Shown one piece after another: positions 5,691 through 48,974 of a stretch of DNA of 64,000 nucleotides. The translations under genes were made by a program, and so were the position numbers. Source of the stretch: a bacterium UBP2_UBA5202 (GTDB taxonomy: Bacteria; Edwardsbacteria; AC1; EtOH8); contig DHVS01000032.1 in assembly GCA_002412795.1 (NCBI GenBank), positions 27,577 to 91,576 of the forward strand. Reading direction: 5' to 3'. Within the stretch, counting starts at the first letter, position 1. Each line of letters starts with the position of its first letter. Under the pieces are notes generated by a model. The model did not search any database. It was not told where the DNA came from and saw nothing but the letters and a program-made list of their open reading frames with translations.

Positions 5691-5840
5691 GGATTTGTTA
5701 TGATTTATGATTGCAGCGTCGCCAGCAGTACCTTATAACATTTTTCCCAAAAAGTCAAACAATTTCAGGGCCGTTAAAATATCTCCTGGCCTGGCTTGTA
5801 TCCCCTTGACTTTTTGCCTGAAATTTGACATCATTAAAAT

Positions 5841-14118: not shown

Positions 14119-14144
14119 CTGCCGGTTAAGGCCGTTATGTAGGA

Positions 14145-14597
14145 CTACTGCTGCTGAGTTCCACCCTCCTTATGCTCAAAGTTGATTCTATGAGTATAAA
14201 TGTTGAACGGAAAGTATATCTCCACCGTATATCTGATCTCCATCTCCAATCCCTCGGAGGTCCTGGTCATATGTTCCAGGAAATATTGTTTGGCAAGTTC
14301 CAGATATTCCTTTTCTTGTTCCGGAGTCTCCGGTTGGTAGAAAAACTTTTTGCCGTCATCCCCGATTACTTGATAAAAATAATCACCGCTGATCGGAATT
14401 TTATCAAGTAGGGCGTTTTCGGATAGTTTAATGGCAATGCTGATGTCTGACTCGGAATTGGCCGATAGCACCGCCTCCTTGATCTTTTCCTTGATATCGG
14501 CAAAGCGAATATAGGGCAACAATATTACGATGGACATATATAAGGCAAAGCCCACCAATATCCACAGTATCCATTTGACTATTCTCGGCATTGGCAC
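14145..14597 (-). CDS. Hypothetical membrane-anchored protein
   Basis: N-terminal TM helix (IVKWILWILVGFALYMSIVILL); no recognisable motif. Confidence 0.4.
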   Translation of the reverse strand: MPMPRIVKWILWILVGFALYMSIVILLPYIRFADIKEKIKEAVLSANSESDISIAIKLSENALLDKIPISGDYFYQVIGDDGKKFFYQPETPEQEKEYLELAKQYFLEHMTRTSEGLEMEIRYTVEIYFPFNIYTHRINFEHKEGGTQQQ

Positions 14598-17084: not shown

Positions 17085-17834
17085 ATGCTTAAAACAATCG
17101 CCGACTTACATACCCACACCGTTTTTTCCGACGGCCGGCTTTCGCCCCAAGAAGTTCTGCGGATCGCTGCGGACAAGGGGTACCGGGTGGGGCTGGCCGA
17201 CCACTGCGGCCCGGGAAATTTCCAGCTGGACAGCCGGGACCGGTTTGAAAAATATCTGTCAGCCATTCAGGACCTGCCAGTCTACCGAGCCGTGGAACTG
17301 GACCTGGGACGGGAGATTCCCATTTCACCGGAGGAGCTGAAACGCTGCCATTATCTGATCGGCGGGGTTCATTCAGTGGGAACGGCGGATTTCTTTGATC
17401 CCCGGATTACTGAGATCGATCTGCCCCTTCTGCTGGATGAGATGCTGGAAATAATCGGGCTCCAGTCCCAAAAATATTCTTTTGACATCCTGGCCCACCC
17501 CGGCCTGCTGCCCTGCAATTTCCGGGAGCAGAAAGACGCCATCACTGGCGGATGGCGGATGAAACTGGTGGAGCTGGCCCTGAAATGCAATTTGGCCATC
17601 GAACTCAGCTCCCGGTGGCTGGTCCCGGACCTGAAGCTGGCATCGATGGCCAAAGAGGCCGGATTGAAGTTTTCCCTGGGTTCGGACGGGCACGACGCCG
17701 ACAAAATGTGCCGGCTGGACTATTCGCTGGAGCTGGCCGGGAAACTGGAACTGGCCGACCGGGATCTGTTCTGGCCCTTGAACGGGGCTATTCCGTGGCA
17801 AACGAATCCTGGATCCGGTCATCCATCACCCTGA
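17085..17834 (+). CDS. PHP-domain metal-dependent phosphoesterase (start moved to MLKTIADLHTHT)
   Basis: DLHTHTVFSDG and ADHCGPG histidine clusters typical of the PHP family. Confidence 0.7.
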   Translation: MLKTIADLHTHTVFSDGRLSPQEVLRIAADKGYRVGLADHCGPGNFQLDSRDRFEKYLSAIQDLPVYRAVELDLGREIPISPEELKRCHYLIGGVHSVGTADFFDPRITEIDLPLLLDEMLEIIGLQSQKYSFDILAHPGLLPCNFREQKDAITGGWRMKLVELALKCNLAIELSSRWLVPDLKLASMAKEAGLKFSLGSDGHDADKMCRLDYSLELAGKLELADRDLFWPLNGAIPWQTNPGSGHPSP

Positions 17835-18246
17835 TCCTGGCCGAAAGGATCCGGGACATGGCCAGCATCATCTTGGCCGCTATCCTGGCCTCCTTGTCCA
17901 TCAGAAAGGCGATGTGCTTGCGGGTCAGAATATACAGCTCGGTGCTCTCCACCGCGTTGACATTGGCCGACCGGGGGGCCTTGTCCAGCAGGGACATTTC
18001 TCCGAAGAACTTTCCCGGACCCAGTTCGGCCAGCACCACGTCCCCCTGGTCGGTGGGCAGGCTGATCTGGACCTTGCCGCTCTTGATCAGGTACATGCTG
18101 TCGCCGGGTGCGTCCTTCTGGCAGATGATGGACCCGGGCATGAAATCCTCGGCCTCGGTGGAAAAAAGCTGGGTCAGGCGCATCATCTCGTCTTCGGCCA
18201 GTTCCTGGAACAGCAGGAAATCCCTGAGGTTGTTGATGGAGCTCAT
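17788..18246 (-). CDS. Standalone cyclic-nucleotide-binding (CNB) domain protein (start trimmed to MSSINN.., AGGAGG SD)
   Basis: GKFFGEMSLLDKAPRSANV phosphate-binding cassette; the track's longer start at 18396 would overlap the divergent gene by 80 nt and lacks an SD. Confidence 0.75.
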   Translation of the reverse strand: MSSINNLRDFLLFQELAEDEMMRLTQLFSTEAEDFMPGSIICQKDAPGDSMYLIKSGKVQISLPTDQGDVVLAELGPGKFFGEMSLLDKAPRSANVNAVESTELYILTRKHIAFLMDKEARIAAKMMLAMSRILSARIRVMDDRIQDSFATE

Positions 18247-18316
18247 TTCCCCTCCTGTTTGATGAAGTGATGGATTTTTAGGAACTTTACAATTTAAAAC
18301 CAAGGAGTCTGAAGGT

Positions 18317-18772
18317 ATGTCCCAGATCATCGAAGCCCTGACCAACAACCACCTTTTCTCCTCGCTGACCCCGGAGGAACTGGAGCGAATTGCCAAGCTG
18401 ATCTTTCTGCGCAGCTACCGCCAGGGCCGCACCCTGTTCTTTGAGGGCACTCCGGGCGAGGTGATGTATCTGATCCATTCCGGGCAGGTGGGCATTTACA
18501 AATCCGTTCCCGGAAAGGATGACCTTTTGCTGGCCACACTCAAACCCGGCAGTTTTTTTGGCGAGATGTCCCTGGTGGACGCCCAGCCCCGCTCGGCCAC
18601 CGCCCGGATAGCCGAGGATGCCGAACTGGTGGTGATCACCAAAAAGGTCTTTGACCAGATGCTGCTGACCGATCCCGGCATCACCTCCAAGTTGCTGGTG
18701 GCCCTGCTTAAAGTGGCTTTGGGGCGGCTGCGCTCCACCGACGAAAAATTCAAGAGCTTGAAGCCGGCCTAA
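18317..18772 (+). CDS. Standalone cyclic-nucleotide-binding (CNB) domain protein
   Basis: GSFFGEMSLVDAQPRSATARI phosphate-binding cassette; AAGGAG SD. Confidence 0.8.
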   Translation: MSQIIEALTNNHLFSSLTPEELERIAKLIFLRSYRQGRTLFFEGTPGEVMYLIHSGQVGIYKSVPGKDDLLLATLKPGSFFGEMSLVDAQPRSATARIAEDAELVVITKKVFDQMLLTDPGITSKLLVALLKVALGRLRSTDEKFKSLKPA

Positions 18773-19218: not shown

Positions 19219-22200
19219 ATGGAACGAACCGAACTGGTCAGTAGAATACTGGAGAGGCTGGGTCAGATCACCCGCAAGGAACAGGCCGTCCCGGCGGATC
19301 AGCAGGAACAGACGGTGTTTGTGCGGCTGGACCAGGTGGAGAAGATCGTCAGTTCCATCGAACGTTACCTGCCCCGGCGGATAATTGACAAGATCCTGCT
19401 CAACCCCGAAGGAACCCAGGTGGAGGGCGAACGCCGCCCGGTGACAGTCTTGTTCGGGGATCTCTCCGGGTTTACCTCCATGTCCGAGACCATGGACCCG
19501 GAACAGGTGGTGGAGGTGGTCAACCAGTACTTCGATGCCATGGTGGAGATCGCCTCCCGCTACGGCGGGCATATAGACAAATTCATGGGCGACGCCTTGA
19601 TGGTGCTGTTCGGGGCGCCGGTGGTCCATGAGGACGACCCGTTGCGGGCCTGTCTGGCGGCCATCGAGATGCTGGAGGCCATGGACCGGTTCGCCGCCGA
19701 GCGCAAGATGGCGCTGGCCATGAGCATCGGCCTTAATTCCGGCGAAGTGGTGGCCCTGAACGTGGGATCCAGGGAAAGGATGGAATACACCGTGATCGGC
19801 GACGCCGTCAACCTGGCGGCCCGGCTGGAAAAGGTGGCCAACTCCCGGGAATGCGTGATCGGCGAGAATACCTATAAGAGGGTCAAGGGAAAGATCCGGC
19901 TGAAAAAACTGAAGCCGGTGATGGTCAAGGGAAAATCCAAGGCCCAGAATGTTTATTTGATCCTGGGACGGGTGGAAGCCGAGGAAAAGGCCGGAGCCCT
20001 TCGTTCCGGCTCCATCAAGATGGTGGGCCGCCAGGCCGAAATGAACGGGATCCGTCAGGCGGTTCAAAAAACCAAAGCCGGAGCCGGACAGATCGTAGCC
20101 ATCACCGGAGAACCGGGGCTTGGGAAATCCCGCCTGGCCAAGGAGCTGGAGCTTCTGGCCCGGGAGGATAACTTTAAATTCATCAAGGGCAAATGCTACT
20201 CCTACGCTTCTGGCGTCGCCTATCTGCCGTTCCTCCGCCAGTTGAATGTCTTGGCCGGTATCGCCGACTCTGATCCCGGTCCCAAGAAATCCGAAAAACT
20301 GCAGTCCTGCCTCCAAACATTAGACCTGCTGGAGTTCGAGCCTTATTTGGGCGCTTTGTTGGGGCTGAGCTATCCCGACATCGAAGCCCTGGACCCGGAA
20401 AAGCGCAAGAGAAAAACATTCGAGGCCTTCTCGCAGCTTTATTCCAAAACCTCAGCCAAACAGCCGCTGGTTTTGGCTTTTGAAGACCTGCATTGGGCGG
20501 ACACCATCACCCTGGAATTGCTGGAGCGCCTGGTGGAAGACCTGGAAAAGAAACCGGCGCTGGTCTGCTGCGATTACCGGCCGGAACTGGCCCTGCCTTT
20601 CATCGCCCGTTCCAACTGCACGAGCCTGGTGCTGAACAAACTGGACGTCCGGGAGACACTGCAGATGATCTCCGGACTGGCCCAGGTCCAGGACGTCAGC
20701 GAAGAGGTGCTTAAAAAGATAGAGGAACGGACCGAGGGCAATCCCCTGTTCATTGAGGAAACCATCCGCAACCTGCTCTCCCGCCGGCTGGTCAAACGGG
20801 ACGGCCCCAATCTGCAGGCCTCCAAGCGCTTTGAAAAAATATCCCTCCCCAACACGGTGGCCGCCATGGTGCTGGGCCGGATAGACAAGCTTTCCGAAGA
20901 GTTCCGCCGCACCCTGCAGTACGCCGCGGTGATCGGCAAGGAATTCGACAGCCGCCTGCTGGGAAAAATTTCGGGGCAGAACCCGGAACAGATCCAGCCC
21001 ATACTGGATAACCTGGAGCATTTTGAAGGGCTTTTGTATTCCAAACTGCTGGAGGGAAAACGGACCTACGAGTTCCACTCCACCACCACTCACGAGGCCG
21101 CCTACTCCACCCTGCTTAAGGGCCGGCGCAGGGAGCTGCACGGACAGGCCGCCCAGGCCTTGGAGCGGGAACACCAAAAGGATCTCTACTCCCACTACGA
21201 AGACCTGGCCCACCACTACTACCACAGCAAGGACAGCGACAAGGCGGTAAACTACCTGCACCGGGCCGGGGACAAGGCCCGGGGGCTTTATGCCAATCCC
21301 GAAGCGGTGGAGTTCTACCGCAAGGGGCTGGAGTTGGTCAAGCTGCTCAAGGAGAGCCGCCCCAACCTGCTGGAGACCGCCGAGTTGCTGGGGGCCCAGG
21401 GGGCCATTTTCCGGCTGACAGGCCAGCGGGACCAGGCCCTTAAGAACTTCCTCACCGCCGCCAAGATATCCCAGCGGGAGAAGGACGACAAGGCCGAAAG
21501 GAAATACCTGCTCTCGGCCGGAATAGTGTACGATATGCTGGGGCAGCCACAGAAGAGCCGGGATATCATCGACAACGTCCTGGACACGGCAGAGGGTTCG
21601 GGGGACCAGATCGCCCAGGCGGTAGCCCTGCACAACAAGGGCAATCTGTTGCTGCGCGGCGGAAACAACAATGAGGCGATAGACTCCTTTTCCAAAGCCC
21701 TCTCGATTTACCAGGCGCTGAAAAAGGAGCGGGAGATCGCCCAGATCCAGGGAAGCCTGGGAAAGGCCTTTGAACTGACCGGAGAGCTGCCCCGGGCGGT
21801 GGAGCATTACCGGAAGGCCATCGAAATTTCAACCTCCGTAAGATACACCGAAGGAATCGCTTTGCAGAACAACAACATCGGGAACCCCCTGCTGATGCTG
21901 GGCGAAGTCGAGGAGGCCGGCAAACACTTTGCCGCGGCGCTGGAAACCGCCAAAAAGATAGGCGACCGGAGAATAGAGTCCTTTGCCGGTTTCAACTTGG
22001 GAAACATTCAGTTTATGCTGGGCAGCTATACGGCGGCCTATGACCATTATGAGCGGGCGCTGCTGTCCGCCAAAGAGATCGGGGAGATAGCCCAGCAGAT
22101 GAACATCTCCTGCAATATCGGTTCGGTCTATCAGATCTGGGGTGACGCCCAGCCGGCAGTAGAACAGCACGCCGCGGCCCTCAAGATCTCACTGGTGATC

Positions 22201-23016
22201 AAGGACCGCAATACCGAGGCGGAGATCCGGAGGAACCTGGGCCTGGACCTGGCCCTGCATGGCAGATACCGGGAATCCCTGGAGGAGTTTGAAGGGGCGG
22301 CAGACTTGGCAGTTAAGATCGGTGACCCCCGGATGCAGGCCTATGTCAAGGCCAACCTGGGAGAACTTTTCCACCTGCTGGGCCGGCCGGAGCAGGCGGA
22401 GAGATCGATAACCGAAGCTCTGGAAGAAGCCCGCCAGGTCCGTGACCCCGAGGTCATCCTGGCCGCAGCCCGGGGTTTGGTGGAGTTCAAGCTGGCCACC
22501 GGAGATCTTCCCGGAGCCGAAGAGCATGTTAACCGCCTTTTGGGGCTGGCCGAAAAAACCCGGAACAAAAGGGAGACGGCTTACGGCCTGTTAAATTTAT
22601 CAGCCCTGATGATGAAGAAGGGCGAATCTGTAGAAATGACCCAGCCGCTTTCTGAATCCCTGGTCCTGGCCCAGGAACTTAAGGACAAATTTCTTTTGGG
22701 CCGGATTTACCTGCTGTTTGCCCAAAAGGCCTTACTTGCCAGCAATATCAGGGAAGCCGAAGACTATTTGAAGGATGCTTCGGAAATGGCCAAGAAAACG
22801 GAATCTCCTGAGCTTTCGTGGCAGACCGGTTATTATCTCAGCAAGTTATATGACCTGAAGGAAAATAGGGAACAAGCTGAAAAGGAGCTGGAAAACGCGC
22901 AGAATATAATCAAGCAAATGGAAAGCAGTTTGCCCCAGGTTGTTAGAGACGGCTTTATAGAAAAAACTTCCCGCAAGCTTGCGTTTACTAACGCGAGGGG
23001 CCAAGAACAACCATAA
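19219..23016 (+). CDS. Class III adenylate cyclase fused to STAND (AAA_16-type) NTPase and TPR repeat array
   Basis: Cyclase catalytic domain (FGDLSGFT, KFMGDALM, GDAVNLAARLE with Lys/Asp substrate residues indicating ATP); Walker A ITGEPGLGKSRLAKE; extensive C-terminal TPRs; 1265 aa. Confidence 0.8.
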   Translation: MERTELVSRILERLGQITRKEQAVPADQQEQTVFVRLDQVEKIVSSIERYLPRRIIDKILLNPEGTQVEGERRPVTVLFGDLSGFTSMSETMDPEQVVEVVNQYFDAMVEIASRYGGHIDKFMGDALMVLFGAPVVHEDDPLRACLAAIEMLEAMDRFAAERKMALAMSIGLNSGEVVALNVGSRERMEYTVIGDAVNLAARLEKVANSRECVIGENTYKRVKGKIRLKKLKPVMVKGKSKAQNVYLILGRVEAEEKAGALRSGSIKMVGRQAEMNGIRQAVQKTKAGAGQIVAITGEPGLGKSRLAKELELLAREDNFKFIKGKCYSYASGVAYLPFLRQLNVLAGIADSDPGPKKSEKLQSCLQTLDLLEFEPYLGALLGLSYPDIEALDPEKRKRKTFEAFSQLYSKTSAKQPLVLAFEDLHWADTITLELLERLVEDLEKKPALVCCDYRPELALPFIARSNCTSLVLNKLDVRETLQMISGLAQVQDVSEEVLKKIEERTEGNPLFIEETIRNLLSRRLVKRDGPNLQASKRFEKISLPNTVAAMVLGRIDKLSEEFRRTLQYAAVIGKEFDSRLLGKISGQNPEQIQPILDNLEHFEGLLYSKLLEGKRTYEFHSTTTHEAAYSTLLKGRRRELHGQAAQALEREHQKDLYSHYEDLAHHYYHSKDSDKAVNYLHRAGDKARGLYANPEAVEFYRKGLELVKLLKESRPNLLETAELLGAQGAIFRLTGQRDQALKNFLTAAKISQREKDDKAERKYLLSAGIVYDMLGQPQKSRDIIDNVLDTAEGSGDQIAQAVALHNKGNLLLRGGNNNEAIDSFSKALSIYQALKKEREIAQIQGSLGKAFELTGELPRAVEHYRKAIEISTSVRYTEGIALQNNNIGNPLLMLGEVEEAGKHFAAALETAKKIGDRRIESFAGFNLGNIQFMLGSYTAAYDHYERALLSAKEIGEIAQQMNISCNIGSVYQIWGDAQPAVEQHAAALKISLVIKDRNTEAEIRRNLGLDLALHGRYRESLEEFEGAADLAVKIGDPRMQAYVKANLGELFHLLGRPEQAERSITEALEEARQVRDPEVILAAARGLVEFKLATGDLPGAEEHVNRLLGLAEKTRNKRETAYGLLNLSALMMKKGESVEMTQPLSESLVLAQELKDKFLLGRIYLLFAQKALLASNIREAEDYLKDASEMAKKTESPELSWQTGYYLSKLYDLKENREQAEKELENAQNIIKQMESSLPQVVRDGFIEKTSRKLAFTNARGQEQP

Positions 23017-23190: not shown

Positions 23191-26100
23191 TTATCTTAGC
23201 AGCACCATCCTTTGGGTAAGGCTGGTCCCTTCAAAATTCAGCTGGTAAAAATACACCCCGGCCGGCATCATCCTTCCCTGGCTGTCGTCGCCCTTCCAGG
23301 TCAGGCTGTAAGCTCCGCTTTGTTTTTGACCCTGGTCTAAAGTATTTACCCTCCGTCCGCAGATATCGTAGACATTTAGCGATACCGCTCCTGGTTTGTG
23401 CAGGGCATACTTGATTACAACCGCACCCGAGGAGGGGTTGGGATGACAGGGCATCAACTGCAGCTTATCGTAGACCAGACCTCCGCTTACCGCCATTACC
23501 GGGCCGTGCCAGGTCACCTGCCCGTTCAGGTCCTTGTCCCCCAGCCGGTAATAGTAAGTGGTGTTGGGCAATACCTCCGCATCGGTGTAGCTGTAGCTTC
23601 TGCCCACCGAGGATCCGCCCTCGGCCTCAATGGTTTTTATGTTTTGGAAATCTTCGGTGGGGCTGATTGAGCGCTCTATCAGCCATTGATAGTTGTCTTT
23701 CTCGCTGGCGGTTTGCCAGATCAATGTTATCCCCTCGTCCCCGCTCTGGCAGGCAAATTCAGAAAGTTCCACCGCCAAAGGCGTGGCCATAGCCCGGGGC
23801 GAAACCCCGGCAGCCAAGCTGTTGAATTGGTAGAAATAGGGATACTTGGCCACCGGGGCCTTGGAATCTTTGCCGATGTTGTTGGTGGTGGGGAAGGCGT
23901 TCCAGGAATGCTCGTTGGCCTCGTTGTTGCAGACCACCAGATATTTGAAGACATTGCCTACGGTATATTTCAAATAGGCGAACGGCACCTGGACCTCCAG
24001 GTAATTATATTTATTTATGCTGTCCAGCGACAAATAGCTGGTGTTGTATGAAGCTATGGAGTCCACCCAGGTCTTGCTGCCGGTGGATTTTTTCAGCACC
24101 GCGGTGGTTCCGTTCTCTATTATCAGGCAGAAATCCGGCCGGAAAGCGGGATCGAAACCGGAACAGGAATCCCCGGCATTATAGGTGCAGGTGGAATCGG
24201 CTCCGCCGGCCCGGGTGTCGAAATAAATGAACATGTCGCCGGCGGTTCGCCAATCGCAGCGGCTGTATCCCAGATAGAGATTGGATGCATCCCAAGTGGT
24301 GAACAGGGTGTCGCCGAGACGGATGCCTATCCTTTCGCTCTTGGTGAAATCGTTTACGCAGCCGTATGTGTAGCCCAGCCTGATCGTGTGGGGGGTGACC
24401 GTGTCGCCGGTGGCAATGATTCTCGGCTCGTTGCCCAAGGTACCCCATCTTACGGGTGAGCTCTCGTCGCCAGCTTTCAGGGCAAATATCAGGGTGTCGC
24501 CCGGAGCGAAGCCGAAGACATTTTTCTTTTCCCGGACATCCACGTTTGCCGGCACCCAAGCCTGATAATAGGTCATTCCGGTATCAATAAAATCTTCCTC
24601 GGAGCTCATCTTGCCCAAATCCGAGGCGGAGGCATTGTACTTGGTGTATTTTAACCAGTATTTACTGGCTTTTTCGGCCGCGTTGTCGTCGCTGACGGCA
24701 GTCCAGGAAAGCTCAACTGTGCCCTCGACGGTTCCGGTATAAACAGAATCCACCAGATCCACGATCGGCTCCGGCTCCACGTTAAAGCCCTGGTAGGCCA
24801 GGATCCGCCGGGTCAGCTCCGAGGCGGTGCTGGGAAATATGCCGTTTGTCAGTGAGCCGATGGAAAATGTCAGGTAGACGTTGTTGTGGACGGAAGCCTT
24901 GGTTCCCTTGTAATAGTCACCGTAGGAGGTGGCCCGGCCGTAGGTGATCTTGCCGGGGCCTTCGCTGGTCATGAGAAGGTTTGAGCCTGAAGCATACGGC
25001 TCTATGATGTCCACCGAATTGTCTGGCCCCTGTTGGAAAGGATAATCGAACATCATGCCATCGGTAAAGGTTCCGGCCAGGCCGTAGATCTTCTGGATGT
25101 TTCCGGTGGCGGCCGGGTTGCCGGGCCCGACATACTTGGAGCCGAACCTGGAGAACAGGGTGGTGGTGTTGTACATCTGCCCGAAGTCGTTGCCAGCCAT
25201 TATCAGGCACTTCAGGCTGTCGTCGGCGAAGGACACCAGGGAATCAAGCTGCTCCGGCTGGATGACTCCGGCTGTGCTGCCATCCTCGGCGTAACCCAGG
25301 TCCACCAGGCAGAGATCATAGGCTTCGCTGCTGTTAAGCTTGCCCTGCTTGCGCCAGGCGTATTCCAAAATGTCGGTGTTGGTGATCTGAACGAACTGCT
25401 GATTGGGGATGTTGCGTTCCTTGAAGGCCAGCACATAGGCCGAGTCCAGAGGGATATACAGGGATTCCGGCTCGGCGATGGGATCTTCGTTCCAGCCGGG
25501 GGTTGATGGATCATCGTAGCTCTTCTTGGGGTGGTACCAGATCTTCCGCCCCGATTCCTTGTCCTTGCTGATGTGGTAGTTTATGTCCACTTTCTTGAGG
25601 GTGTCCTGCTCCGCCTTGGCCGAATTGGTGAAATACTGGCCGAAGATGTCGCCCAGCCCGGTGGTGCGGCTGGAGTCCATCCAGGCAACCGAGAACCATT
25701 CCCCGAAGCGGCAGACCGCCGGGGCCCGCTGGCCGTTGGCCGGGTTTTGGTTGACCAGCTTGACCTTCTCCCACCTGGCGGCGTAGTCAAAATAGCGGGA
25801 CTTGATCTCATAACGATCCGAGCCCATCGAGTCAGCCCAGCTGACCCAGAAGGAGACATTGTCGGCATTCATAACGATGGAGGGTATCCGGCAGGCCACC
25901 GGATAGACCGGCAGGTTAACCTGAAAATTCTTGTCGATGGGCTTGGCATCCGGGTCAAAGCGTTGGGCATAAATATTACCCAGAACATTGCCGGTATAAT
26001 TTATCCAGGCGATGGTGAAAAAGCCGGTGTCATTGGCCGCGATGGCCGGGGTGAGGTGCGGCACTTCGACGTTCTCGCTGATCCGGGCTTCGTTGGTCAG

Positions 26101-26823
26101 GGGGCTGAGGTCGGCCTTGTAGTAGCGCAAGAAAATGCTGGGCCGGGATGGGCGGTGGTCCTGCCAGGTTATGGCGATGTACTTCTCGCTATAGCTTACC
26201 GCCGGCAGCACCTGATGGTACTTGTCGGGATCCTGGCTGATCTTGATATCGTCGCTGATCGGCTTGCAGTCGTAGTCGAACAGCCGGGCATAGATGTCCC
26301 AATCGCCGTCCCGTTCATCCTGCCAGACCACCACGAACCGCTGGTTAATGGGGTTGACCGCCACCTTGGGAAACTTGGCGTGCTTGGCTACTACCCGATT
26401 GATACGGAAATCCTCGGACAGCGGGAAACCGTCGGGCTTCATCTTGTGGCCGTAGATCTGCCAGAAGGGATCCTTGTAGATCGAGTCCTGCCACACCACA
26501 AAGACATAATCCCCCGACTTACCGGCCAAGTCAGGAGCCTTTTGGTCCCGGTTGTCCTGGGCCTTAGTGTTAACCAGAAAGGATGGCGTCAGCGGGGCGG
26601 GCTTGCGCTGCCACAGGCGGCCGTAGATGTTCCAGTTGCCGTCCCGGCGGTCGGCCCAGACGTAAGTGGAGTTGTAGTCCCGGTCCATCACCGCCGCCGG
26701 CGCCTCCTGGGCGGTCTCGCCGGCATCGTTGTCCCAAAGGAATATCTTGCAGGTGTCTTTGGCGGCCAGGGCCGCAGAGGACACGGCCATTACCGCGAAC
26801 AATAGACTTACTATTTTTTTCAC
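23191..26823 (-). CDS. Large secreted protein with repeated beta-propeller-like modules and C-terminal T9SS sorting domain
   Basis: Signal peptide MKKIVSLLFAVMAVSSAALA; repeated VVWQD..WDIY..F motif blocks; C-terminal ..LNVYDICGRRVNTL..GAYSLTWKGDD..GVYFYQL.. (Por/T9SS CTD pattern); 1210 aa. Confidence 0.7.
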   Translation of the reverse strand: MKKIVSLLFAVMAVSSAALAAKDTCKIFLWDNDAGETAQEAPAAVMDRDYNSTYVWADRRDGNWNIYGRLWQRKPAPLTPSFLVNTKAQDNRDQKAPDLAGKSGDYVFVVWQDSIYKDPFWQIYGHKMKPDGFPLSEDFRINRVVAKHAKFPKVAVNPINQRFVVVWQDERDGDWDIYARLFDYDCKPISDDIKISQDPDKYHQVLPAVSYSEKYIAITWQDHRPSRPSIFLRYYKADLSPLTNEARISENVEVPHLTPAIAANDTGFFTIAWINYTGNVLGNIYAQRFDPDAKPIDKNFQVNLPVYPVACRIPSIVMNADNVSFWVSWADSMGSDRYEIKSRYFDYAARWEKVKLVNQNPANGQRAPAVCRFGEWFSVAWMDSSRTTGLGDIFGQYFTNSAKAEQDTLKKVDINYHISKDKESGRKIWYHPKKSYDDPSTPGWNEDPIAEPESLYIPLDSAYVLAFKERNIPNQQFVQITNTDILEYAWRKQGKLNSSEAYDLCLVDLGYAEDGSTAGVIQPEQLDSLVSFADDSLKCLIMAGNDFGQMYNTTTLFSRFGSKYVGPGNPAATGNIQKIYGLAGTFTDGMMFDYPFQQGPDNSVDIIEPYASGSNLLMTSEGPGKITYGRATSYGDYYKGTKASVHNNVYLTFSIGSLTNGIFPSTASELTRRILAYQGFNVEPEPIVDLVDSVYTGTVEGTVELSWTAVSDDNAAEKASKYWLKYTKYNASASDLGKMSSEEDFIDTGMTYYQAWVPANVDVREKKNVFGFAPGDTLIFALKAGDESSPVRWGTLGNEPRIIATGDTVTPHTIRLGYTYGCVNDFTKSERIGIRLGDTLFTTWDASNLYLGYSRCDWRTAGDMFIYFDTRAGGADSTCTYNAGDSCSGFDPAFRPDFCLIIENGTTAVLKKSTGSKTWVDSIASYNTSYLSLDSINKYNYLEVQVPFAYLKYTVGNVFKYLVVCNNEANEHSWNAFPTTNNIGKDSKAPVAKYPYFYQFNSLAAGVSPRAMATPLAVELSEFACQSGDEGITLIWQTASEKDNYQWLIERSISPTEDFQNIKTIEAEGGSSVGRSYSYTDAEVLPNTTYYYRLGDKDLNGQVTWHGPVMAVSGGLVYDKLQLMPCHPNPSSGAVVIKYALHKPGAVSLNVYDICGRRVNTLDQGQKQSGAYSLTWKGDDSQGRMMPAGVYFYQLNFEGTSLTQRMVLLR

Positions 26824-27200
26824 TGGGTTTTTCTCCTTTTCCCTGGTGTTTTTTCCCGGATGGCAGCCAAAGCCATCGAGAGCAGTTTTATTCTTTTATC
26901 TTTGTCGTCCAAACACTGCTTTAGCAGTTTAAGTATATCTGATTTTTTTAAGTCGGAGGTGGGAAGGTACCAGTTCTCGCCTTTCTTTTTTATCTTCTGA
27001 AGTGTTTTGGCCTCTACGAATTGCTCCAAGCAGCAACTGATCTCGTCATGGCTTTTGCCCAACAACTTGGAAATGCTTTTGGGGGTTTCCTGGGCATTGG
27101 GCTGGCGGGCATAATGCAAAACAATGTCCAAAGCAGTGAAGCTGTGGATCGACCTTTGGATGAAATAGTCTAAGTCTTTATTTTCATTATCGCTATGCAT
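26820..27200 (-). CDS. Small protein, possible winged-helix DNA-binding regulator, co-transcribed with the T9SS cargo gene
   Basis: 126 aa; helix-turn-helix-like TALDIVLHYARQP..ETPKSISKLLGKSHDEISCCLEQFVEAK..KKGENWY; 4-nt overlap with downstream gene; lower GC than neighbours. Confidence 0.4.
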   Translation of the reverse strand: MHSDNENKDLDYFIQRSIHSFTALDIVLHYARQPNAQETPKSISKLLGKSHDEISCCLEQFVEAKTLQKIKKKGENWYLPTSDLKKSDILKLLKQCLDDKDKRIKLLSMALAAIREKTPGKRRKTQ

Positions 27201-27395
27201 AGTTATCTCTTATTGAGAACAATATAATGCAAAAACTATGCCAACTAGTTTATCAATTTATATTACCATGCAACAACTGGACTTATGTTACTTATTGATT
27301 TTATGCTTTTGGTTGAATTGTTGTATTTATATATAACGTCAATAAAAAAATGTACTGTCTACCTTTGGTTACATTTGCACAATTTATTTTAATAA

Positions 27396-27412
27396 TGCAT
27401 TTTTTGTGCCTT
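27396..27412 (-). promoter_or_regulatory. Candidate sigma54 (-24/-12) promoter reading toward the wHTH and T9SS cargo operon
   Basis: Minus strand reads AGGCAC-AAAAA-ATGCA with GG-N10-GC spacing, matching TGGCAC-N5-TTGCW; about 185 nt upstream of the ATG at 27200. Confidence 0.35.
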
Positions 27413-27547
27413 TTATTAATTTTGTTTATATATTTTCTATCTATCTTATTATCAACAATTTAGCCCCCTGCTCGTTATTACCAAACAACATATTGAGGTG
27501 TAATATTTACACTCCTGTTTCATCAATGCCATATCTTTCAAATAGTT

Positions 27548-27578
27548 ATAATAAGATGTAAATTTTACATCTTATTAT
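27548..27578. promoter_or_regulatory. 31-bp perfect palindrome (ATAATAAGATGTAAA-T-TTTACATCTTATTAT); candidate enhancer (UAS) for the adjacent sigma54 activator
   Basis: Direct read; arms of 15 bp identical on reverse complement; centre about 150 bp upstream of the candidate -24 element. Confidence 0.45.
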
Positions 27579-27592
27579 GGTTTCTTGCACGT

Positions 27593-27625
27593 AAAAAGGC
27601 CTTAACACAAGCTAAGGCCTTTTTG
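27593..27625. terminator. Rho-independent terminator after the sigma54 activator gene
   Basis: AAAAAGGCCTTA-ACACAAGC-TAAGGCCTTTTTG. Confidence 0.75.
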
Positions 27626-27663
27626 TAAATAGCTTTGTGAGTAATCATTGAATCTTAGTTGAC

Positions 27664-29241
27664 TTATTCTCTGTTGCGGGGCCGGATGATGTTCAGCTCC
27701 TTTAATAGCCGGGAAAGATAGGATGGCTGAATGTCCAAAACCTTGGCAGTTTTTCTTTGATTCCAGTTGTTCGCCTCCAGCGCTTTTATCATATATTCCC
27801 GCTTGAACACATCCTGGGCGCCGTCCCAGGTCATGGTGGGCGGTATGCCATCCCTGGTGGAAGTATCGTCAATCAGCCGGGGCAGGTTCTGCAGGGTTAT
27901 GGTCTGGCCGGAGCTGAGCACCACCGCCCTCTCCACCGCATTCTGCAGCTCCCGGATGTTTCCCGGCCAGGAATAGTTCTGCATGGCCTGGGCGGCCTCC
28001 TCGGTAAATTCCCTCACCTGCTTTTTGGTCTCCCGGCCGAATTGTTCCAGAAAATGCCGGGCCAAAACCGGGATGTCCTCCGCCCTTTGGCGCAGCGGCG
28101 GCAGGAATATTTGAAAAACATTCAGCCGGTAATAAAGATCCTCCCGGAATAATCCGGATTTCACCAGTTGCAGCAGGTCCTTGTTGGTGGCGGCGATGAT
28201 CCTGACATCCACTTTTATCGTCTCGCTGCTGCCCAGCCGCTCAAATTCCCTCTCCTGCAAAACCCTCAGGATCTTGGCCTGAATGGCCTGGGGCAGGTCC
28301 CCTACTTCGTCCAGGAAGATGGTGCCTCCGGCCGCCATCTCAAACCGTCCCTTGCGCCGGCTGCCGGCCCCGGTAAAGGCGCCCTTCTCGTGTCCGAACA
28401 GCTCGGATTCCAGCAGTTCCACCGGGATGGCGGCGCTGTTGACGGCCACAAAGGCCTTTTCGGCCCGGGGGCTTTGGTAATGAATGAACCGTGCCAGCAG
28501 TTCCTTGCCGGTCCCGTTCTCCCCCTGCAGCAGCACCGTGGTGTTCCCGGAGGCCACCTTGCGGGCCAGGCCCAGCACCTCTTCCACCGCCTGGCTCTTG
28601 CCGGTGATGGTGTAGCGGCTGGCCAGCTCGTCACGCAGCTGGACGTTCTCGTCCTTCAAGCGGCTGTATTTGTCGGCGTTCTCCAGCACCTGGGCCGCCA
28701 GATCGGCGAATTTCAAAAGCAGTTCCTGGTCCTGCTGGTCGAACCGCTGGCCGTCCTTTTTGTTCAGCACCTCTATCACGCCGATGGTCTGGCCCCTTGA
28801 AAGCAGCGGCACGCAGAGCAGGGACTTGGTGATAAACTTGGTCTTTTCATCTATTCCCTTGTACCAGCGCTCGTCCTGCTCGGCCTGGTTCACGATCTGG
28901 GGCTTTTGCTCCCGGGCCACCCACCCGGCTATCCCCTGGCCCATGGGGATGGAAAGTTTTTTCAGCTCCTCCGAGACCTCCCCGGTGGCATGGGCAAAAT
29001 GCAGGTTCTGGGTGGCCTGGTCCAGCAATAATAGAGAACTGGCCTCGGCCACGGTCAGCGTTTTGGCCGACTCAATGATGATGTCCAGCAGCTGGCTTTG
29101 ATCCAGGGTGGAAGAAAGCGATTTGCTGAAGGAAAGAAGAAATTCCAGTTCCTGGCGGGATTTCTGGTCGCTCATATGGTTTATATATCCTTTTTGTAAT
29201 ATTTCTTGTTCAATGATAGCAGTGAAATATATGTTTGTCAA
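27664..29241 (-). CDS. Sigma54-dependent transcriptional activator (bEBP) with N-terminal GAF sensor and C-terminal Fis-type HTH
   Basis: AAA+ sigma54-interaction domain (Walker A GENGTGKE, GAFTGA motif, Walker B DEV..); HTH (QRKTAKVLDIQPSYLSRLLKEL). Confidence 0.85.
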   Translation of the reverse strand: MTNIYFTAIIEQEILQKGYINHMSDQKSRQELEFLLSFSKSLSSTLDQSQLLDIIIESAKTLTVAEASSLLLLDQATQNLHFAHATGEVSEELKKLSIPMGQGIAGWVAREQKPQIVNQAEQDERWYKGIDEKTKFITKSLLCVPLLSRGQTIGVIEVLNKKDGQRFDQQDQELLLKFADLAAQVLENADKYSRLKDENVQLRDELASRYTITGKSQAVEEVLGLARKVASGNTTVLLQGENGTGKELLARFIHYQSPRAEKAFVAVNSAAIPVELLESELFGHEKGAFTGAGSRRKGRFEMAAGGTIFLDEVGDLPQAIQAKILRVLQEREFERLGSSETIKVDVRIIAATNKDLLQLVKSGLFREDLYYRLNVFQIFLPPLRQRAEDIPVLARHFLEQFGRETKKQVREFTEEAAQAMQNYSWPGNIRELQNAVERAVVLSSGQTITLQNLPRLIDDTSTRDGIPPTMTWDGAQDVFKREYMIKALEANNWNQRKTAKVLDIQPSYLSRLLKELNIIRPRNRE

Positions 29242-29378
29242 GGGGGTTGGTATCTATAAAATTTACAGCCCGTATCCTTTCATAATTGTTTTTCCGGCTG
29301 AAGCTTTTTTGTTTGCAAAATCCATAATAAAAATGATATGATTATACAAATTAAAACCTGAAAGAACATATTACATCT

Positions 29379-32142: not shown

Positions 32143-32682
32143 TTGCAACAATTCAACGCTACATTAAGGAGACTTTGGGCGGTGAGATTTTTTTCTGTTA
32201 AATTAAAGGCGGCAACACTGATAGCCTGTTGGCTTTTAGGCGGAGCCAGTCTGGCCTTTGCCCAGTCCGGCGGGTACCTGGAAAGATCGCAGGGCCAGGC
32301 CGGAACTACCGGCGATATTTACGAGCGCGAGGTATTGATCGAGGTCCAGATCTGGGGACAGGTCTCCCGGCCGGGCCGTTACCGGGTGGCGGTGACCACA
32401 GATGTGGTGGGACTTCTATCGTACGCCGGCGGCCCCACCGAGGATGCCGCCCTTTCCCGGGTAAAACTGGTACGGGGGGCTTTTGGACCAGGACAGACCC
32501 AAAAAGTTAACGTTTCCAAATATACCGGGAGGGCCGACAAATCCCTGATACCAATGCTGGAGCAGGGCGATGTGGTGATAGTGCCCTCCACCCTCTTCCA
32601 TAAAATGATGCGGGCGGCAGGCTTTTTAAGCCAGGCCGCGGTAATAGTCACTGCCTACCTGGTAGTGGCCGGAGTGAGGTAG
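32143..32682 (+). CDS. Polysaccharide export protein, Wza-like SLBB-domain (true start probably the GTG near 32179 after an AAGGAG SD)
   Basis: Signal peptide; SLBB-type pattern (EVLIEVQIWGQVSRPGRY.V...T.VVGLLSYAGGPTEDAA...VKLVRG...GDVVIVPS). Confidence 0.6.
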   Translation: MQQFNATLRRLWAVRFFSVKLKAATLIACWLLGGASLAFAQSGGYLERSQGQAGTTGDIYEREVLIEVQIWGQVSRPGRYRVAVTTDVVGLLSYAGGPTEDAALSRVKLVRGAFGPGQTQKVNVSKYTGRADKSLIPMLEQGDVVIVPSTLFHKMMRAAGFLSQAAVIVTAYLVVAGVR

Positions 32683-32688
32683 CCGAAG

Positions 32689-34941
32689 ATGAGAAACGAT
32701 TTAGCCCAGGGCAAGCTTAACCCCGCTGAGTCCTCCCAGCCGGGATTGCAGGACCTGCTGCGGATAATTCTGCGGCGGCGGTGGATAGTGCTGGGAGCAT
32801 TTCTGACGGTGCTTATTTCCTCTATCATCTTTTCTTTCCGCCAGCCCAATATTTACGAAGCCAGCATCAGCCTGCTGGTCCAGCGGGACAACAAGCCCAT
32901 TTTGGGGATGATGCTGGAAACCGAGCAGAGCCGGAACCTGATCAACAACCAGGTGGAGATCATCCGCAGCCGCAGCCTGGCCGCCGAGGCCGCCCAGCTT
33001 TTACTGGCCCGGCCCGATGCCAAAGAGATGGGCTTTGCCGACCTGAACCAGGTGGCGGAGTTCGTCATGTATTCCATCACCGTGCTTTCGGCCCGCACCA
33101 CCGACATTATAACCGTGATCGCCACCGGCAACGATCCGGCCCAGGCGGCGGCCATTGCCAACACCGTGGGCCAGGCGTACATTGCCCGGAACCTGAGTTA
33201 CAGCCGGGGGGAATTTACCGAGGTCCGGCGTTTTCTGGAGGTCCAGCTGCCGGTGATCGAGAAAAAGCTTTTTAGCGAGGAAAATCAGCTCCGCCAGTTC
33301 AAACAGGCCAACCAGGTAATATCGCTTTCCGACGAATCGAAAAGTTTGATCGACAAGCTGACCACCTTCGAAGCCCAGTTCAACCTGACCGGGGTGGAAC
33401 GGGAATCGGCCGAAAAACGGCTGGCTTATCTCCAGAACCAGCTGGATTTCCAGAAGAAGAACATGCTGGAGAATGTGTCCCAGGTCTCTTCGCCTTTGGC
33501 TTCCGGCCTGCGCCAGGATCTATTGACCCTCCAGACCCAGATGGCCACCATGACCTCCCAGGGTTTTCCGGCCGACCACGCCAAGATGAAAGAGTTGGCC
33601 AAGAAAATTGAAAATACCAAATCCCGGCTCAAGGAAGAGATCTCCAAGATAGTGGCCCAGGAGAGCGGCGGAATAGACCCCATTCTGTTGTCCGAAGAAC
33701 TGGTGGGCAAGATCCTGGATCTTCAGGTGGAGATCGAGACCTACAAGGCCAAGGAGCTGGCCCAGCAAAGGGTGATCAGCAACTACCTGGTGAAACTGAA
33801 GGCCATTCCGCCCAAGGAGGTGGAGCTGGCCCGGCTGACCCGCCAGTTTGAACTGGGCGACAACATCTACAAAATGCTGATGGAGAAATACGAAGAGGTC
33901 CGCATCTCCGAAGCCGGCAAGCTGGGCAATGTCAAGATCATCGACCTGGCCCAGGTTCCCAAGGAGCCGGTGGGCCCCCGTCGCAAACTCAACATCCTGT
34001 TCGGCGGCATGCTGGGCCTGGCCTTGGGAATAGGGCTGGTGCTGCTGATGGAATACATGGACACCTCGCTGAAGAACATTCACGACATCGAGCAGTTTTT
34101 AGCCCTGCCGGTGCTGGGGATGATCCCGGCCATAGACCAGGAGGATGTGGCCAGCCGGACCGATGGCGGAAAGACAGTTAACGGGGCCACCTCCATTGCC
34201 GAGCGCCTGATCAGCCACCACCTCCCCAAGTCCCCCATCTCCGAGGCCTATCGGATACTGCGCACCAACCTCCAGTTCCTTAACCCCGACGCCCCGCTGA
34301 AGACCATCCTGGTGACCTCCTCCGGGCCGTCGGAAGGAAAGACCACCACCGCCTCCAACCTGGCCATTACCATGGCCCAGGTGGGTTCCCGCACTTTGAT
34401 CGTTGACGCCGACTTGCGGCGTCCCATGGTCAACGGTGTTTTCGGCATTCCCCAGGAGCCGGGACTGACAGAACTGCTGGTCAAGGGCGGCGACCTGCAA
34501 AAGGCCATGGTCTCCACCGATATTGAAAACCTTTTCATCCTGCCGGCCGGAACGATCCCCCCCAACCCGTCCGAGCTGCTGAGCTCGCAGAAGATGAAAC
34601 ATTTGATCCAGGAGATGAAAAAATGCTGCGATCTGGTGATCCTGGACTGTCCGCCGGTGATCACCGTCACCGACGCCGCCGTGCTGGCGGCCGAAGCCGA
34701 TTGCGTGGTGCTGGTTGTACAATCGGGCAAGACCGACCGCGAAGCCGCCCGGCGGGCCAAGACGCTTCTGTTGAACGTCAAAGCCAGGATAGCCGGCACG
34801 GTGCTGAATAACATCAGTTCCGACATGCTGGCAGGCTACAGTTATTATTATCACTATTACTACGAGGACGGCCACCGCAAAAAAGGCCAAAAGGGCCGGA
34901 AAAAGAAAAGTCTTTTAAGCGGATATTACTCAAAAAAATAG
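32689..34941 (+). CDS. Polysaccharide co-polymerase / tyrosine autokinase (Wzc/GumC-like, BY-kinase)
   Basis: N-terminal chain-length-determinant region with TM helix; C-terminal Walker A SSGPSEGKTTTASNLA, DADLRRP, Walker B DLVILDCPP; tyrosine-rich tail YSYYYHYYYEDG. Confidence 0.8.
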   Translation: MRNDLAQGKLNPAESSQPGLQDLLRIILRRRWIVLGAFLTVLISSIIFSFRQPNIYEASISLLVQRDNKPILGMMLETEQSRNLINNQVEIIRSRSLAAEAAQLLLARPDAKEMGFADLNQVAEFVMYSITVLSARTTDIITVIATGNDPAQAAAIANTVGQAYIARNLSYSRGEFTEVRRFLEVQLPVIEKKLFSEENQLRQFKQANQVISLSDESKSLIDKLTTFEAQFNLTGVERESAEKRLAYLQNQLDFQKKNMLENVSQVSSPLASGLRQDLLTLQTQMATMTSQGFPADHAKMKELAKKIENTKSRLKEEISKIVAQESGGIDPILLSEELVGKILDLQVEIETYKAKELAQQRVISNYLVKLKAIPPKEVELARLTRQFELGDNIYKMLMEKYEEVRISEAGKLGNVKIIDLAQVPKEPVGPRRKLNILFGGMLGLALGIGLVLLMEYMDTSLKNIHDIEQFLALPVLGMIPAIDQEDVASRTDGGKTVNGATSIAERLISHHLPKSPISEAYRILRTNLQFLNPDAPLKTILVTSSGPSEGKTTTASNLAITMAQVGSRTLIVDADLRRPMVNGVFGIPQEPGLTELLVKGGDLQKAMVSTDIENLFILPAGTIPPNPSELLSSQKMKHLIQEMKKCCDLVILDCPPVITVTDAAVLAAEADCVVLVVQSGKTDREAARRAKTLLLNVKARIAGTVLNNISSDMLAGYSYYYHYYYEDGHRKKGQKGRKKKSLLSGYYSKK

Positions 34942-38471: not shown

Positions 38472-38592
38472 CCGTAAAATCTTACATTCCATGCAATCCG
38501 CCTGGGATGAATTGAACCACGAAGACGCCAAGGCCGCCAAGGATAACTTAAGCCATCTATTTGCCCTTGCGTCTTTCTGATTAGGTGCAACC

Positions 38593-39063
38593 ATGAACAA
38601 GTCATTTCTAACCGGGGTTCTTTGGGCCGTCCTGACACTCTTGACCGTCAATGTTTTTGCCCAGCCGTCCGACTTCAAAAAGGATGATTTTTACCTGGGC
38701 CAAAACCAGCAGCTGGAGATAGAGATCCACGTCTGGGGCGAGGTCAACCGGCCCGGGGTTTACCGGGTGCCGGACGGCTCCACCGTGCTGGACGTCATCT
38801 CCAGGGCCGGCGGACCGACCCAGTATGCGGCTTTGGGACGGATCAAGGTCTCGCATACCCTGGGACAAAACCCCCGCACCGAGAAATCCGACCTCGACAA
38901 GTACTTAAGCAAGGAGAAGGCCGACACCCTGATGGTGATGATGCCCGGAGACGCCGTGATGGTCCCCCGCAACGCCCGGTTCTTCTGGAAGGACGCGGTC
39001 CGCTTCGTGGCCGACCTGGCGGTCATCGCCAACGTATACTACCTTATCTCCCGGAACCGTTGA
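38593..39063 (+). CDS. Polysaccharide export protein, Wza-like SLBB-domain (second copy)
   Basis: Signal peptide; SLBB-type pattern (EIEIHVWGEVNRPGVYRVPDGSTVLDVISRAGGPT..GDAVMVP). Confidence 0.6.
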   Translation: MNKSFLTGVLWAVLTLLTVNVFAQPSDFKKDDFYLGQNQQLEIEIHVWGEVNRPGVYRVPDGSTVLDVISRAGGPTQYAALGRIKVSHTLGQNPRTEKSDLDKYLSKEKADTLMVMMPGDAVMVPRNARFFWKDAVRFVADLAVIANVYYLISRNR

Positions 39064-39140
39064 ACCGGCACAGGTTCACCGCAAGCTAACAGAGAATACG
39101 GTCCGTAAAGAGATTATTTTTTGCCGAACTATCAACATCT

Positions 39141-48972: not shown

Positions 48973-48974
48973 GT

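Follow-up and report, generated by a model that had tools for sequence, protein, structure and literature searches.

A candidate sigma-54 control module in front of a type IX secretion cargo gene in a TA06-group bacterium

The NifA-dependent nif promoters, for example that of Klebsiella nifH, combine an activator with GAF, AAA+ and helix-turn-helix (HTH) domains, an upstream activating sequence (UAS) of the form TGT-N10-ACA, a site for the integration host factor (IHF) and a -24/-12 promoter. PspF and its target pspA represent a locally encoded sigma-54 activator that works with IHF-assisted looping. In Porphyromonas gingivalis the type IX secretion machinery is controlled by the two-component pair PorX/PorY and the extracytoplasmic function (ECF) sigma factor SigP. 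Looping between the activator and promoter-bound polymerase, usually with the assistance of IHF, is general for this promoter class (PMC2709558), and in the orp operons of Desulfovibrio vulgaris the activator gene adjoins the target operon, with enhancers, an IHF-like site and a -24/-12 promoter in one intergenic region (PMC3897727, PMC2709558). Here we describe a locus whose layout is like that of the orp operons and of PspF-pspA in a 64-kb stretch of contig DHVS01000032.1 (all of it referred to as the window), which comes from a bacterium of the TA06 group. A GAF-domain activator gene is followed in it by an AT-rich intergenic region, a small gene and a gene for a large cargo protein of the type IX secretion system (T9SS). 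We consider it quite probable that the locus is a self-contained sigma-54 control module made up of the activator, two enhancer dyads, an IHF-like site, two -24/-12 elements (P1 and P2), a two-gene operon and gating by the GAF domain. An earlier note, made from the sequence alone, had put secretion of the large protein under the control of the activator. The comparison of orthologous loci supports the reading that the small gene and the cargo gene are preceded by an enhancer-dependent -24/-12 promoter which the GAF activator would drive, with transcription of the cargo gene, and not secretion as such, as the controlled step.

The activator gene and its transcription unit

The three genes are located on the minus strand, as open reading frames at 27664-29241 (525 aa), 26820-27200 (126 aa) and 23191-26823 (1210 aa). 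The island between the first two (27201-27663) is 463 bp long and has 27.4% GC in a window of 55.5% GC; the earlier note had recognised the AT-rich island behind the activator gene, but its values of about 460 bp, 25% and 60% GC were inexact. AT-rich sequence is also typical of other intergenic regions in the window. The small gene and the cargo gene overlap by the 4 nt GTGA at 26820-26823, which contain the stop of the former and the GTG start of the latter, as had been claimed, and the remaining features described in that note are likewise all present in the sequence where it had placed them.

About 13 related loci were compared, with small proteins 31-100% identical to that of the window. 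Additional loci came from metagenome and genome scans with a profile of the small protein and from a profile search for remote relatives. Because the small-protein family is narrow (27 proteins, 67-100% identical, from TA06 or unclassified metagenome-assembled genomes (MAGs)), the scans added only 5 loci. The alignment used below consisted of nine distinct intergenic sequences. The common gene order in contigs with the small protein is a transketolase gene on the opposite strand, the activator gene, the small gene, a gene for a cargo of about 1215 aa and a convergent gene encoding a cyclase-AAA_16-TPR protein. The order activator, small gene, cargo gene holds in every locus with sufficient sequence.

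The activator showed matches above the Pfam thresholds to GAF_2 (1e-21), Sigma54_activat (PF00158, 4.2e-71), AAA_lid_14 and HTH_8 (PF02954, 28.2 bits against a cut-off of 22), in agreement with its description in the earlier note as a GAF-domain sigma-54 activator. Its translation contains GAFTGA, the Walker A motif GENGTGKE and the Walker B motif FLDEVG, and with this AAA+ domain and a C-terminal Fis-type HTH it has the hallmarks of the NtrC/NifA class of bacterial enhancer-binding proteins (bEBPs). The domain order GAF, AAA+ with GAFTGA and Fis-type HTH is the same as in NifA, which was also the best NCBIfam model (TIGR01817) and the best full-length match in the PDB (9qq6). The NCBIfam score of 427.5 bits was under the equivalog cut-off of 528.85, and the activator is therefore NifA-like in architecture only. 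Also in contrast to NifA, its GAF domain is nearer to GAF domains that bind cyclic nucleotide monophosphates (cNMPs), and the putative target is a secreted protein and not nitrogenase.

The open frame of the activator gene reaches up to a TTG at 29241. The real start is most likely the ATG at 29175, giving a protein of 503 aa (27664-29175) rather than 525, because a sigma-70-like promoter lies upstream of this ATG and because the orthologues, which are 71-97% identical, were called as 501-506 aa. This promoter, TTGACA-17-TATCAT with a TG extension (29213-29241, minus strand), agrees with the consensus at 11 of 12 positions, and its TTGACA and TATCAT are conserved among close orthologues. At the other end of the gene there is an intrinsic terminator hairpin, AAAAAGGCCTTA-N8-TAAGGCCTTTTT (27593-27624, minus strand), with perfect arms of 12 nt and a T-run, which as RNA folds with -19.9 kcal/mol (z -4.6). 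The terminator is conserved across the loci; L003 carries an extra matching G:C pair, and in L019 its place is taken by another GC-rich hairpin, also followed by a T-run. Since this hairpin closes the activator gene, the small gene and the cargo gene form a separate transcription unit. Unlike in PspF-pspA and the orp operons, the activator gene is not divergent from its target here; it lies upstream on the same strand, behind a terminator, and the host is an uncultured bacterium of the TA06 group.

Putative promoter elements and enhancer dyads of the intergenic region

P1, the element that the earlier note had proposed as a -24/-12 promoter, reads AGGCACAAAAAATGCA on the minus strand from 27411 to 27396, with GG at 27410-27409, GC at 27398-27397 and therefore the exact GG-N10-GC spacing; its predicted start is near 27385. 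A second and stronger -24/-12 element, P2, had not been noticed before. It has the sequence TGGCATAGTTTTTGCA (27228-27243, minus strand), with GG at 27242-27241, GC at 27230-27229 and again exact spacing, and it is located about 168 bp downstream of P1 and 28 nt before the ATG of the small gene, with a predicted start near 27217, about 17 nt before that ATG. P2 is the sole site in the window with at most one mismatch to TGGCAC-N5-TTGCW and the sole exact match to TGGCAY-N5-TTGCW. When both strands of the window and the loci were searched together (218 kb), 17 sites had at most one mismatch to the consensus, and 15 of these were P2. The presence of two -24/-12 elements in tandem, with a distance of about 168 bp that is conserved, is unusual and distinguishes the locus from the nif promoters; the weak -24 variant (GGTAT / GGTAC) resembles the nifH promoter.

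The second component of the intergenic region is a pair of dyads. The earlier note had described a 31-bp palindrome with perfect 15-nt arms, which is indeed found at 27548-27578 (arms 27548-27562 and 27564-27578, 1 nt between them), but the conserved unit is only its inner 13 bp, TGTAAATTTTACA (27557-27569, referred to as UAS1). In the nine intergenic regions 10 of the 13 positions of this core were invariant, compared with 12 of 31 across the entire palindrome; TGTAA..TTTAC is kept, and genomes vary in the 9 outermost nt of the left arm. A second copy of the core, UAS2, was detected 58 bp downstream of UAS1 as TGTAATATTTACA (27499-27511). It was not part of the earlier description and is conserved in the same way. 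The exact motif TGTAA-N3-TTACA occurs in the window only at these two positions (0.02 expected), and its count of two in the island compares with 0.005 expected from shuffles. All island shuffles reported here preserved the dinucleotide content. The exact motif is also confined to this intergenic region in the related loci, with copies 58-59 bp apart where both match. L019 and L020 contain two identical TGAAAAATTTTCA sites 52 bp apart, in which each half-site of either copy has changed symmetrically, giving TGAAA-N3-TTTCA.

Midway between UAS2 and P1 we detected an IHF-like site, TATCAACAATTTA (27449-27461, plus strand), which matches WATCAANNNNTTR exactly. Its core TCAA-N4-(G)TTA is conserved, with 7 of 13 positions invariant. 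One exact IHF consensus in the island corresponds to P = 0.09 by island shuffles, which is a weak signal when taken alone. TGT...ACA-type dyads about 100-180 bp upstream of the promoter, with an IHF-like site between enhancer and promoter, recall the nif arrangement; the distance between TGT and ACA is N7 here, not N10.

When the nine intergenic sequences were aligned, 22 of the 24 motif-defining positions (enhancer half-sites, GG and GC) were invariant, against 25.6% of all intergenic columns (hypergeometric P 1.5e-12), a test for which the dyad positions were picked after the alignment had been viewed and the GG and GC of P1 had been predicted beforehand by the earlier note. The GG of P1, the A at -22 and AATGC are invariant in the nine lineages, while -23 varies (C/T/A), and GG-N10-GC is retained by every lineage with this type of intergenic region. 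The TTGGCAT and TGC of P2 are invariant wherever P2 is present. The distance from UAS2 to the GG of P1 is 100-102 bp in four lineages (102 in L013 and L017, 100-101 in L009 and the window), and that from P1 to P2 is 164-169 bp across lineages. Domains, motifs, coordinates, conservation and the restriction of the motifs to this locus are all direct observations.

The individual loci show how the elements are combined. L013 and L017 (small protein 83-85% identical) retain the dyad pair, the IHF-like core and P1, spaced as usual; P2 is absent, and P1 is their only -24/-12 element. In these two loci about 250 bp from P1 to the start codon (2751-3000 in L013, 5749-6000 in L017) are unrelated to the other loci and 80% identical to each other. 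L007 and L008 (72-73%) keep P1, the conserved block described below and P2, and the end of an IS30-like transposase gene lies about 40 bp upstream of their P1. This C-terminal end (1-366 in L007, also in L008 and L016) takes the place of the enhancer pair and of the IHF-like site, and the element is cut off by the end of the contig. L009 (83%, with a truncated gene call) has a 232-bp insertion between P2 and the ATG (5671-5902) that resembles a miniature inverted-repeat transposable element (MITE); its terminal inverted repeats (ATGAYTATCCC...CCTTC) are imperfect, its target duplication (TTAAGAAAAA) is 10 bp long, and no second copy of it was found in the sequences compared. L019 and L020 (45%) combine their two dyads with P1 AGGTATAAAAAATGCA and a perfect-consensus P2 TGGCACAATAATTGCA, 168 bp apart. 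Among the remote relatives, L018 has an intergenic region of 164 bp with a perfect TGGCACATCAATTGCA 53 nt before the ATG, and L021 has AGGCACTGTTTATGCA 52 nt before the ATG. Perfect TGGCAC-N5-TTGCA sites thus precede the small gene in L018 and in L019/L020, and a perfect or near-perfect one in L021. Every lineage for which the intergenic sequence is available has at least one -24/-12 element before the small gene.

The presence of two elements raises the question of whether both are used. It is possible, but in our judgement rather unlikely, that only one of them works: either P2 drives the operon and P1 falls within a binding site for another protein, or the activator acts on P1 and P2 is redundant or regulated otherwise, for example via the conserved block between them. 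P2 is far nearer to the consensus and is close to the start codon, and the single promoters of L018 and L021 are found at a comparable place, 52-53 nt before the ATG. In favour of P1 are L013 and L017, which have no other element, and its classical distances from the enhancers and the IHF-like site. The block in question (27318-27356, minus strand; AGTACATTTTTTTATTGACGTTATATATAAATACAAC, AGTAYATTTTTTTATTGACRTTATATATAAATACAAC) is strongly conserved and forms an imperfect dyad. Its centre lies about 95 bp before the GG of P2, the same distance as that of UAS2 from the GG of P1, and it is missing in L013 and L017, which also lack P2; it may represent a further enhancer, or else an operator to which the small protein binds. 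Against the use of a single element, GG and GC are invariant with exact spacing in both P1 and P2, and the distance of 164-169 bp has been kept even where the small proteins are only 45% identical, which suggests that both elements are under selection.

Other signals were looked for in the same region. The conserved block contains TTGAC without a -10 at a spacing of 16-18 nt, and a scan of the gene strand from the activator gene to the small gene revealed no sigma-70-like site. An RNA-level explanation for the conservation of the leader was rejected on the basis of an RNAalifold value of -1.65 and a single-sequence z of 0.12 for the 190-nt leader from P1. A scan of 26700-27750 against Rfam gave no match at E <= 1. 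Without a conserved RNA structure and without an Rfam match, the conservation is therefore at the DNA level.

The 31-bp palindrome itself could be read in another way, as an RNA hairpin serving as a second terminator or as a stabiliser of the activator mRNA, or as the remnant of a mobile element, and we regard this as extremely improbable. As RNA the palindrome folds with -13.1 kcal/mol (z -6.4) and lies 15 nt beyond the terminator, and MITE and IS insertions do occur in this region in relatives. However, its outer arms vary without compensating changes and only the 13-bp core is kept; no U-tract follows it, and the core alone is repeated 58 bp away. The search for further copies of the half-site ATAATAAGATGTAAA, which the earlier note had named as a check, allowed up to 3 mismatches and returned, besides the two arms, only a partial copy at 27438-27452 and a single weak match far away, so that the half-site is not a dispersed repeat in the window. 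No further copies of the 31-mer palindrome were found in the window or the loci.

We propose that the module would work as follows. The activator gene (29175 to 27664) would be transcribed from its own sigma-70-type promoter up to the intrinsic terminator, and the AT-rich island would be the control region of a separate operon that encodes the small, winged-helix-like protein together with a surface or secreted protein sorted by the T9SS. The Fis-type HTH of the activator would bind the two TG(T/A)AA-N3-TT(A/T)CA dyads, whose centres are about 120 and 178 bp before the P1 start, and a bend at the IHF-like site near -70 would allow the AAA+ ring to contact sigma-54 RNA polymerase at P1. The stronger P2, 168 bp downstream, would probably be served by this activator as well. 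ATP hydrolysis via the GAFTGA loop would open the promoter. The N-terminal GAF domain would gate the activity, with cAMP from the neighbouring STAND/TPR adenylate cyclase as the likeliest ligand. The resulting transcript would encode the small protein and the cargo, and the latter would be exported by Sec and sorted by the T9SS. Within this scheme we infer the dyad-binding protein, the firing of both promoters, the bend, the ligand and the presence of sigma-54.

Several observations weigh against this proposal. First, P1 deviates from the consensus at -26, at -15 and, in many lineages, at the variable position -23. In a scan with the sigma-54 consensus, akin to the promoter scan suggested in the earlier note, P1, with its two mismatches, did not rise above the background of the whole window, where 19 two-mismatch sites compare with 36 expected by shuffling. 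In addition, six-frame translations of the window and of the loci collected first contained no RpoN box. Since neither an rpoN gene nor an RpoN box was seen there, sigma-54 in this organism is an assumption. These points, together with the AT-richness of intergenic regions throughout this genome, agree with a reading in which the island is ordinary intergenic DNA with a housekeeping-type promoter, the -24/-12 matches are due to chance and the activator has its target elsewhere. This reading appears very improbable to us. Within the island the same scan was significant: two gene-strand matches with intact GG and GC and at most two mismatches were present, where 0.029 were expected, and none of 3000 shuffles reached two. 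The GG and GC are invariant in all lineages, the remote relatives have the perfect consensus, and the scan of the stretch between the two genes gave no gene-strand sigma-70-like site that would serve as the housekeeping-type promoter.

Second, the 58-bp spacing of UAS1 and UAS2 amounts to about 5.5 helical turns and places them on opposite faces of the DNA; enhancer pairs of the NtrC type are found on the same face. This spacing is an unusual feature of the locus. L018 lacks TGTAA-N3-TTACA although the recognition helix of its activator is almost identical. At 4838-4922 L018 contains two TTATAAC-N3/4-ATTATAA dyads, 66 bp apart, upstream of its perfect sigma-54 consensus. Both the spacing, which is odd for a pair of activator sites, and the L018 case would be accounted for if the dyads were operators of another regulator, either the small winged-helix protein acting on its own operon or a protein with a cNMP-binding domain encoded at 17788-18414, and the activator bound elsewhere or acted from solution. 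In addition, the small protein is fast-evolving, and the dyads also vary among lineages. Even so we find an operator role of this kind quite unlikely. Paired sites at about -120 and -178, next to the activator gene and with an IHF-like site in between, are the standard enhancer layout. The dyads change little while the identity of the small protein falls from 100% to 67%, and a related dyad is present at the promoter of the activator gene itself. This dyad, TATAAAATTTACA (29255-29267), is a one-mismatch copy of TGTAA-N3-TTACA about 14 nt upstream of the -35 of the sigma-70-like promoter and belongs to the four sites in 64 kb within one mismatch of the motif (0.57 expected). Orthologues retain a palindrome at this position, for example CCATAAATTTTATGG in L001, which suggests that it is a candidate site for autoregulation by the activator.

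Third, synteny between close relatives is weak evidence, and one contig, P0017 (JGI 3300075153), has the small gene and the cargo gene without an adjacent activator gene. The operon is therefore able to exist without one. In this contig the two genes are preceded by a gene on the opposite strand for a Peptidase_C1 protein with a T9SS sorting domain.

The GAF domain and the neighbouring cyclase

The GAF domain of the activator gave its best sequence matches in the PDB with Leptospira Lcd1 (5w10, 7e-26), PDE2A GAF-B (1mc0, 5e-23) and CyaB2 (1ykd, 8e-21), followed by the GAF domains of PDE10, PDE5 and PDE6, and the top 20 were all cNMP-binding GAF domains or close relatives of these. Nlh1 (4g3k), with a GAF domain of the activator type, scored only 2e-6. 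The NKFDE motif marks cNMP-binding GAF domains (PMC11977230, PMC4411481). The activator has N-K-x5-F-x3-D-Q, that is four of the five NKFDE positions at the spacing of PDE2A GAF-B, and the same was found in the five orthologues examined; the counterpart in Lcd1 is N-R-F-D-L. The GIAG, Y..D..T...T and E positions also align with PDE2A GAF-B. The positions aligned to PDE2A Ser424, Ile458/Ala459, Tyr481, Asp485, Thr488, Thr492 and Glu512, which are reported to contact cGMP in the PDE2A structure, are conserved, and the counterpart of Asp439 is Ala, unlike in PDE2A and as in Lcd1. The described cNMP-binding GAF domains differ in having a cyclase, phosphodiesterase or GGDEF output in place of a sigma-54 AAA+ domain. 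A homology search with the GAF domain only returned mostly stand-alone GAF proteins of about 190 aa.

The convergent gene next to the cargo gene (19219-23016, plus strand) encodes a protein of 1265 aa with a class III cyclase domain (Pfam Guanylate_cyc, PF00211, 3.4e-29), AAA_16 and TPR. It has IDKFMGD, as in an adenylate-cyclase fusion derived from Cya2 (6fht), where the guanylate cyclase Cya2 (2w01) has IDEFMGD, and YTVIGDAVN, like CyaB (3r5g), with Thr at the second specificity position. Lys and Asp or Thr at these positions specify adenine. On account of this adenylate-type Lys and Thr the cyclase is predicted to be adenylate-specific and to make cAMP. Also by the cyclase gene, the gene at 17788-18414 (minus strand) encodes the protein with the cyclic-nucleotide-binding domain (PF00027, 2.6e-22) and is the third cyclic-nucleotide-related gene within 12 kb.

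From these sequence relationships, cAMP is the most likely ligand of the GAF domain, with the neighbouring cyclase as a candidate source. We tentatively suggest, as an idea that falls short of probable, that the four genes form a cAMP-to-sigma-54 cassette in which the STAND/TPR adenylate cyclase would take up an unknown cue, cAMP would bind the GAF domain, the AAA+ ring would be freed and the tandem promoters would fire. Three points speak against a role for cAMP: the NKFDE motif is incomplete, with Q in place of E; many GAF domains of this type bind other ligands; and the link to the cyclase is tested only by L018, and there only on the activator side. L018 keeps the cluster of four genes including the cyclase, and upstream of its activator gene the transketolase gene is replaced by UvrD and radical SAM genes. 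A GAF domain of the cNMP type beside a STAND adenylate cyclase is an unusual feature of the locus, and the cAMP link is its one potentially novel element. Our literature search found no described cAMP-gated sigma-54 activator. If the cassette is real, the activator would be, as far as we know, the first cAMP-gated bEBP, and thus a path from cAMP to transcription that is independent of CRP.

Products of the operon and meaning of the proposed module

The first gene of the operon (26820-27200, minus strand) is present as the earlier note had described it, but the winged-helix-turn-helix identity given to its 126-aa product found little backing. The small protein had no Pfam or NCBIfam match above threshold. 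An AlphaFold2 model (pLDDT 65.7) showed four helices and a hairpin in winged-helix topology followed by two C-terminal helices, and the best Foldseek matches were ArsR/SmtB/MarR proteins (E 0.045, TM about 0.3). Its remote relatives, which number about 70 and for the most part stand alone with lengths of about 110-155 aa, had only sub-threshold matches to MarR_2, TrmB and HTH_24. The protein may have a winged-helix fold. It diverges much faster than the activator and the cargo in the same genome pairs: the identities to the window in L001, L019 and L018 are 81, 45 and 31% for the small protein, 97, 85 and 71% for the activator and 75, 65 and 68% for the cargo.

The second gene (23191-26823, minus strand) encodes a secreted protein of 1210 aa with a signal peptide, an N-terminal beta-propeller and a T9SS type A sorting domain, as expected of the T9SS cargo proposed in the earlier note. 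From the GTG start a typical Sec signal peptide, (M)KKIVSLLFAVMAVSSAALA|AKD, is obtained, and the C-terminus matched TIGR04183 with 32.6 bits (cut-off 23). The Pfam family Por_Secre_tail scored 22.9, below its cut-off of 27, and FlgD_ig scored 39.8, above its own. Homologues are named T9SS type A sorting domain proteins by NCBI, and full-length relatives were found in TA06 and Candidatus Edwardsbacteria MAGs. In the AlphaFold2 model the propeller has a pLDDT of mostly 70-94, and the middle part, mixed alpha/beta and beta-rich, is of lower confidence. The fold of the propeller matched GH145 BT3686 (TMt 0.63), a PL42 lyase and sialidases at about 10-13% identity; the matches of the fold search were generic propeller and FN3 matches only, with no specific function among them. 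On this model a glycan-binding or glycan-cleaving role is possible. No T9SS machinery genes were recognised among the window ORFs scanned. The locus would share with PorX/PorY-SigP a transcriptional control tied to type IX secretion. In contrast to that system, a sigma-54 activator would here control a single cargo gene, and our literature search found no paper that links sigma-54 with a type IX secretion cargo.

Elsewhere in the window there are two paralogous polysaccharide-export gene pairs (32143-34941 and 38581-41405), each for an SLBB/Wza-like and a Wzz-GNVR-AAA_31/Wzc-like protein, with two CarboxypepD_reg/PEGA proteins encoded between them. A stand-alone HNH endonuclease gene (13621-14169) and a short RHS-repeat protein fragment (48110-49123) are unrelated to the sigma-54 module.

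The overall sigma-54 layout of this locus is a textbook one of known design, and the module fits with the proposal that sigma-54 controls mainly the cell exterior (PMC3162934). If the GAF domain does bind cAMP from the adjacent cyclase, the locus would connect cyclic-nucleotide signals with transcription in a new way; if not, it is one more ordinary case of a familiar design. In either case it offers a candidate activator-binding motif, TG(T/A)AA-N3-TT(A/T)CA, and two candidate promoters. It also provides a sigma-54 layout of enhancers and promoters, validated by comparison, for a phylum without cultured members, and suggests that the canonical -24/-12 consensus and the looping architecture extend to TA06/Edwardsbacteria.

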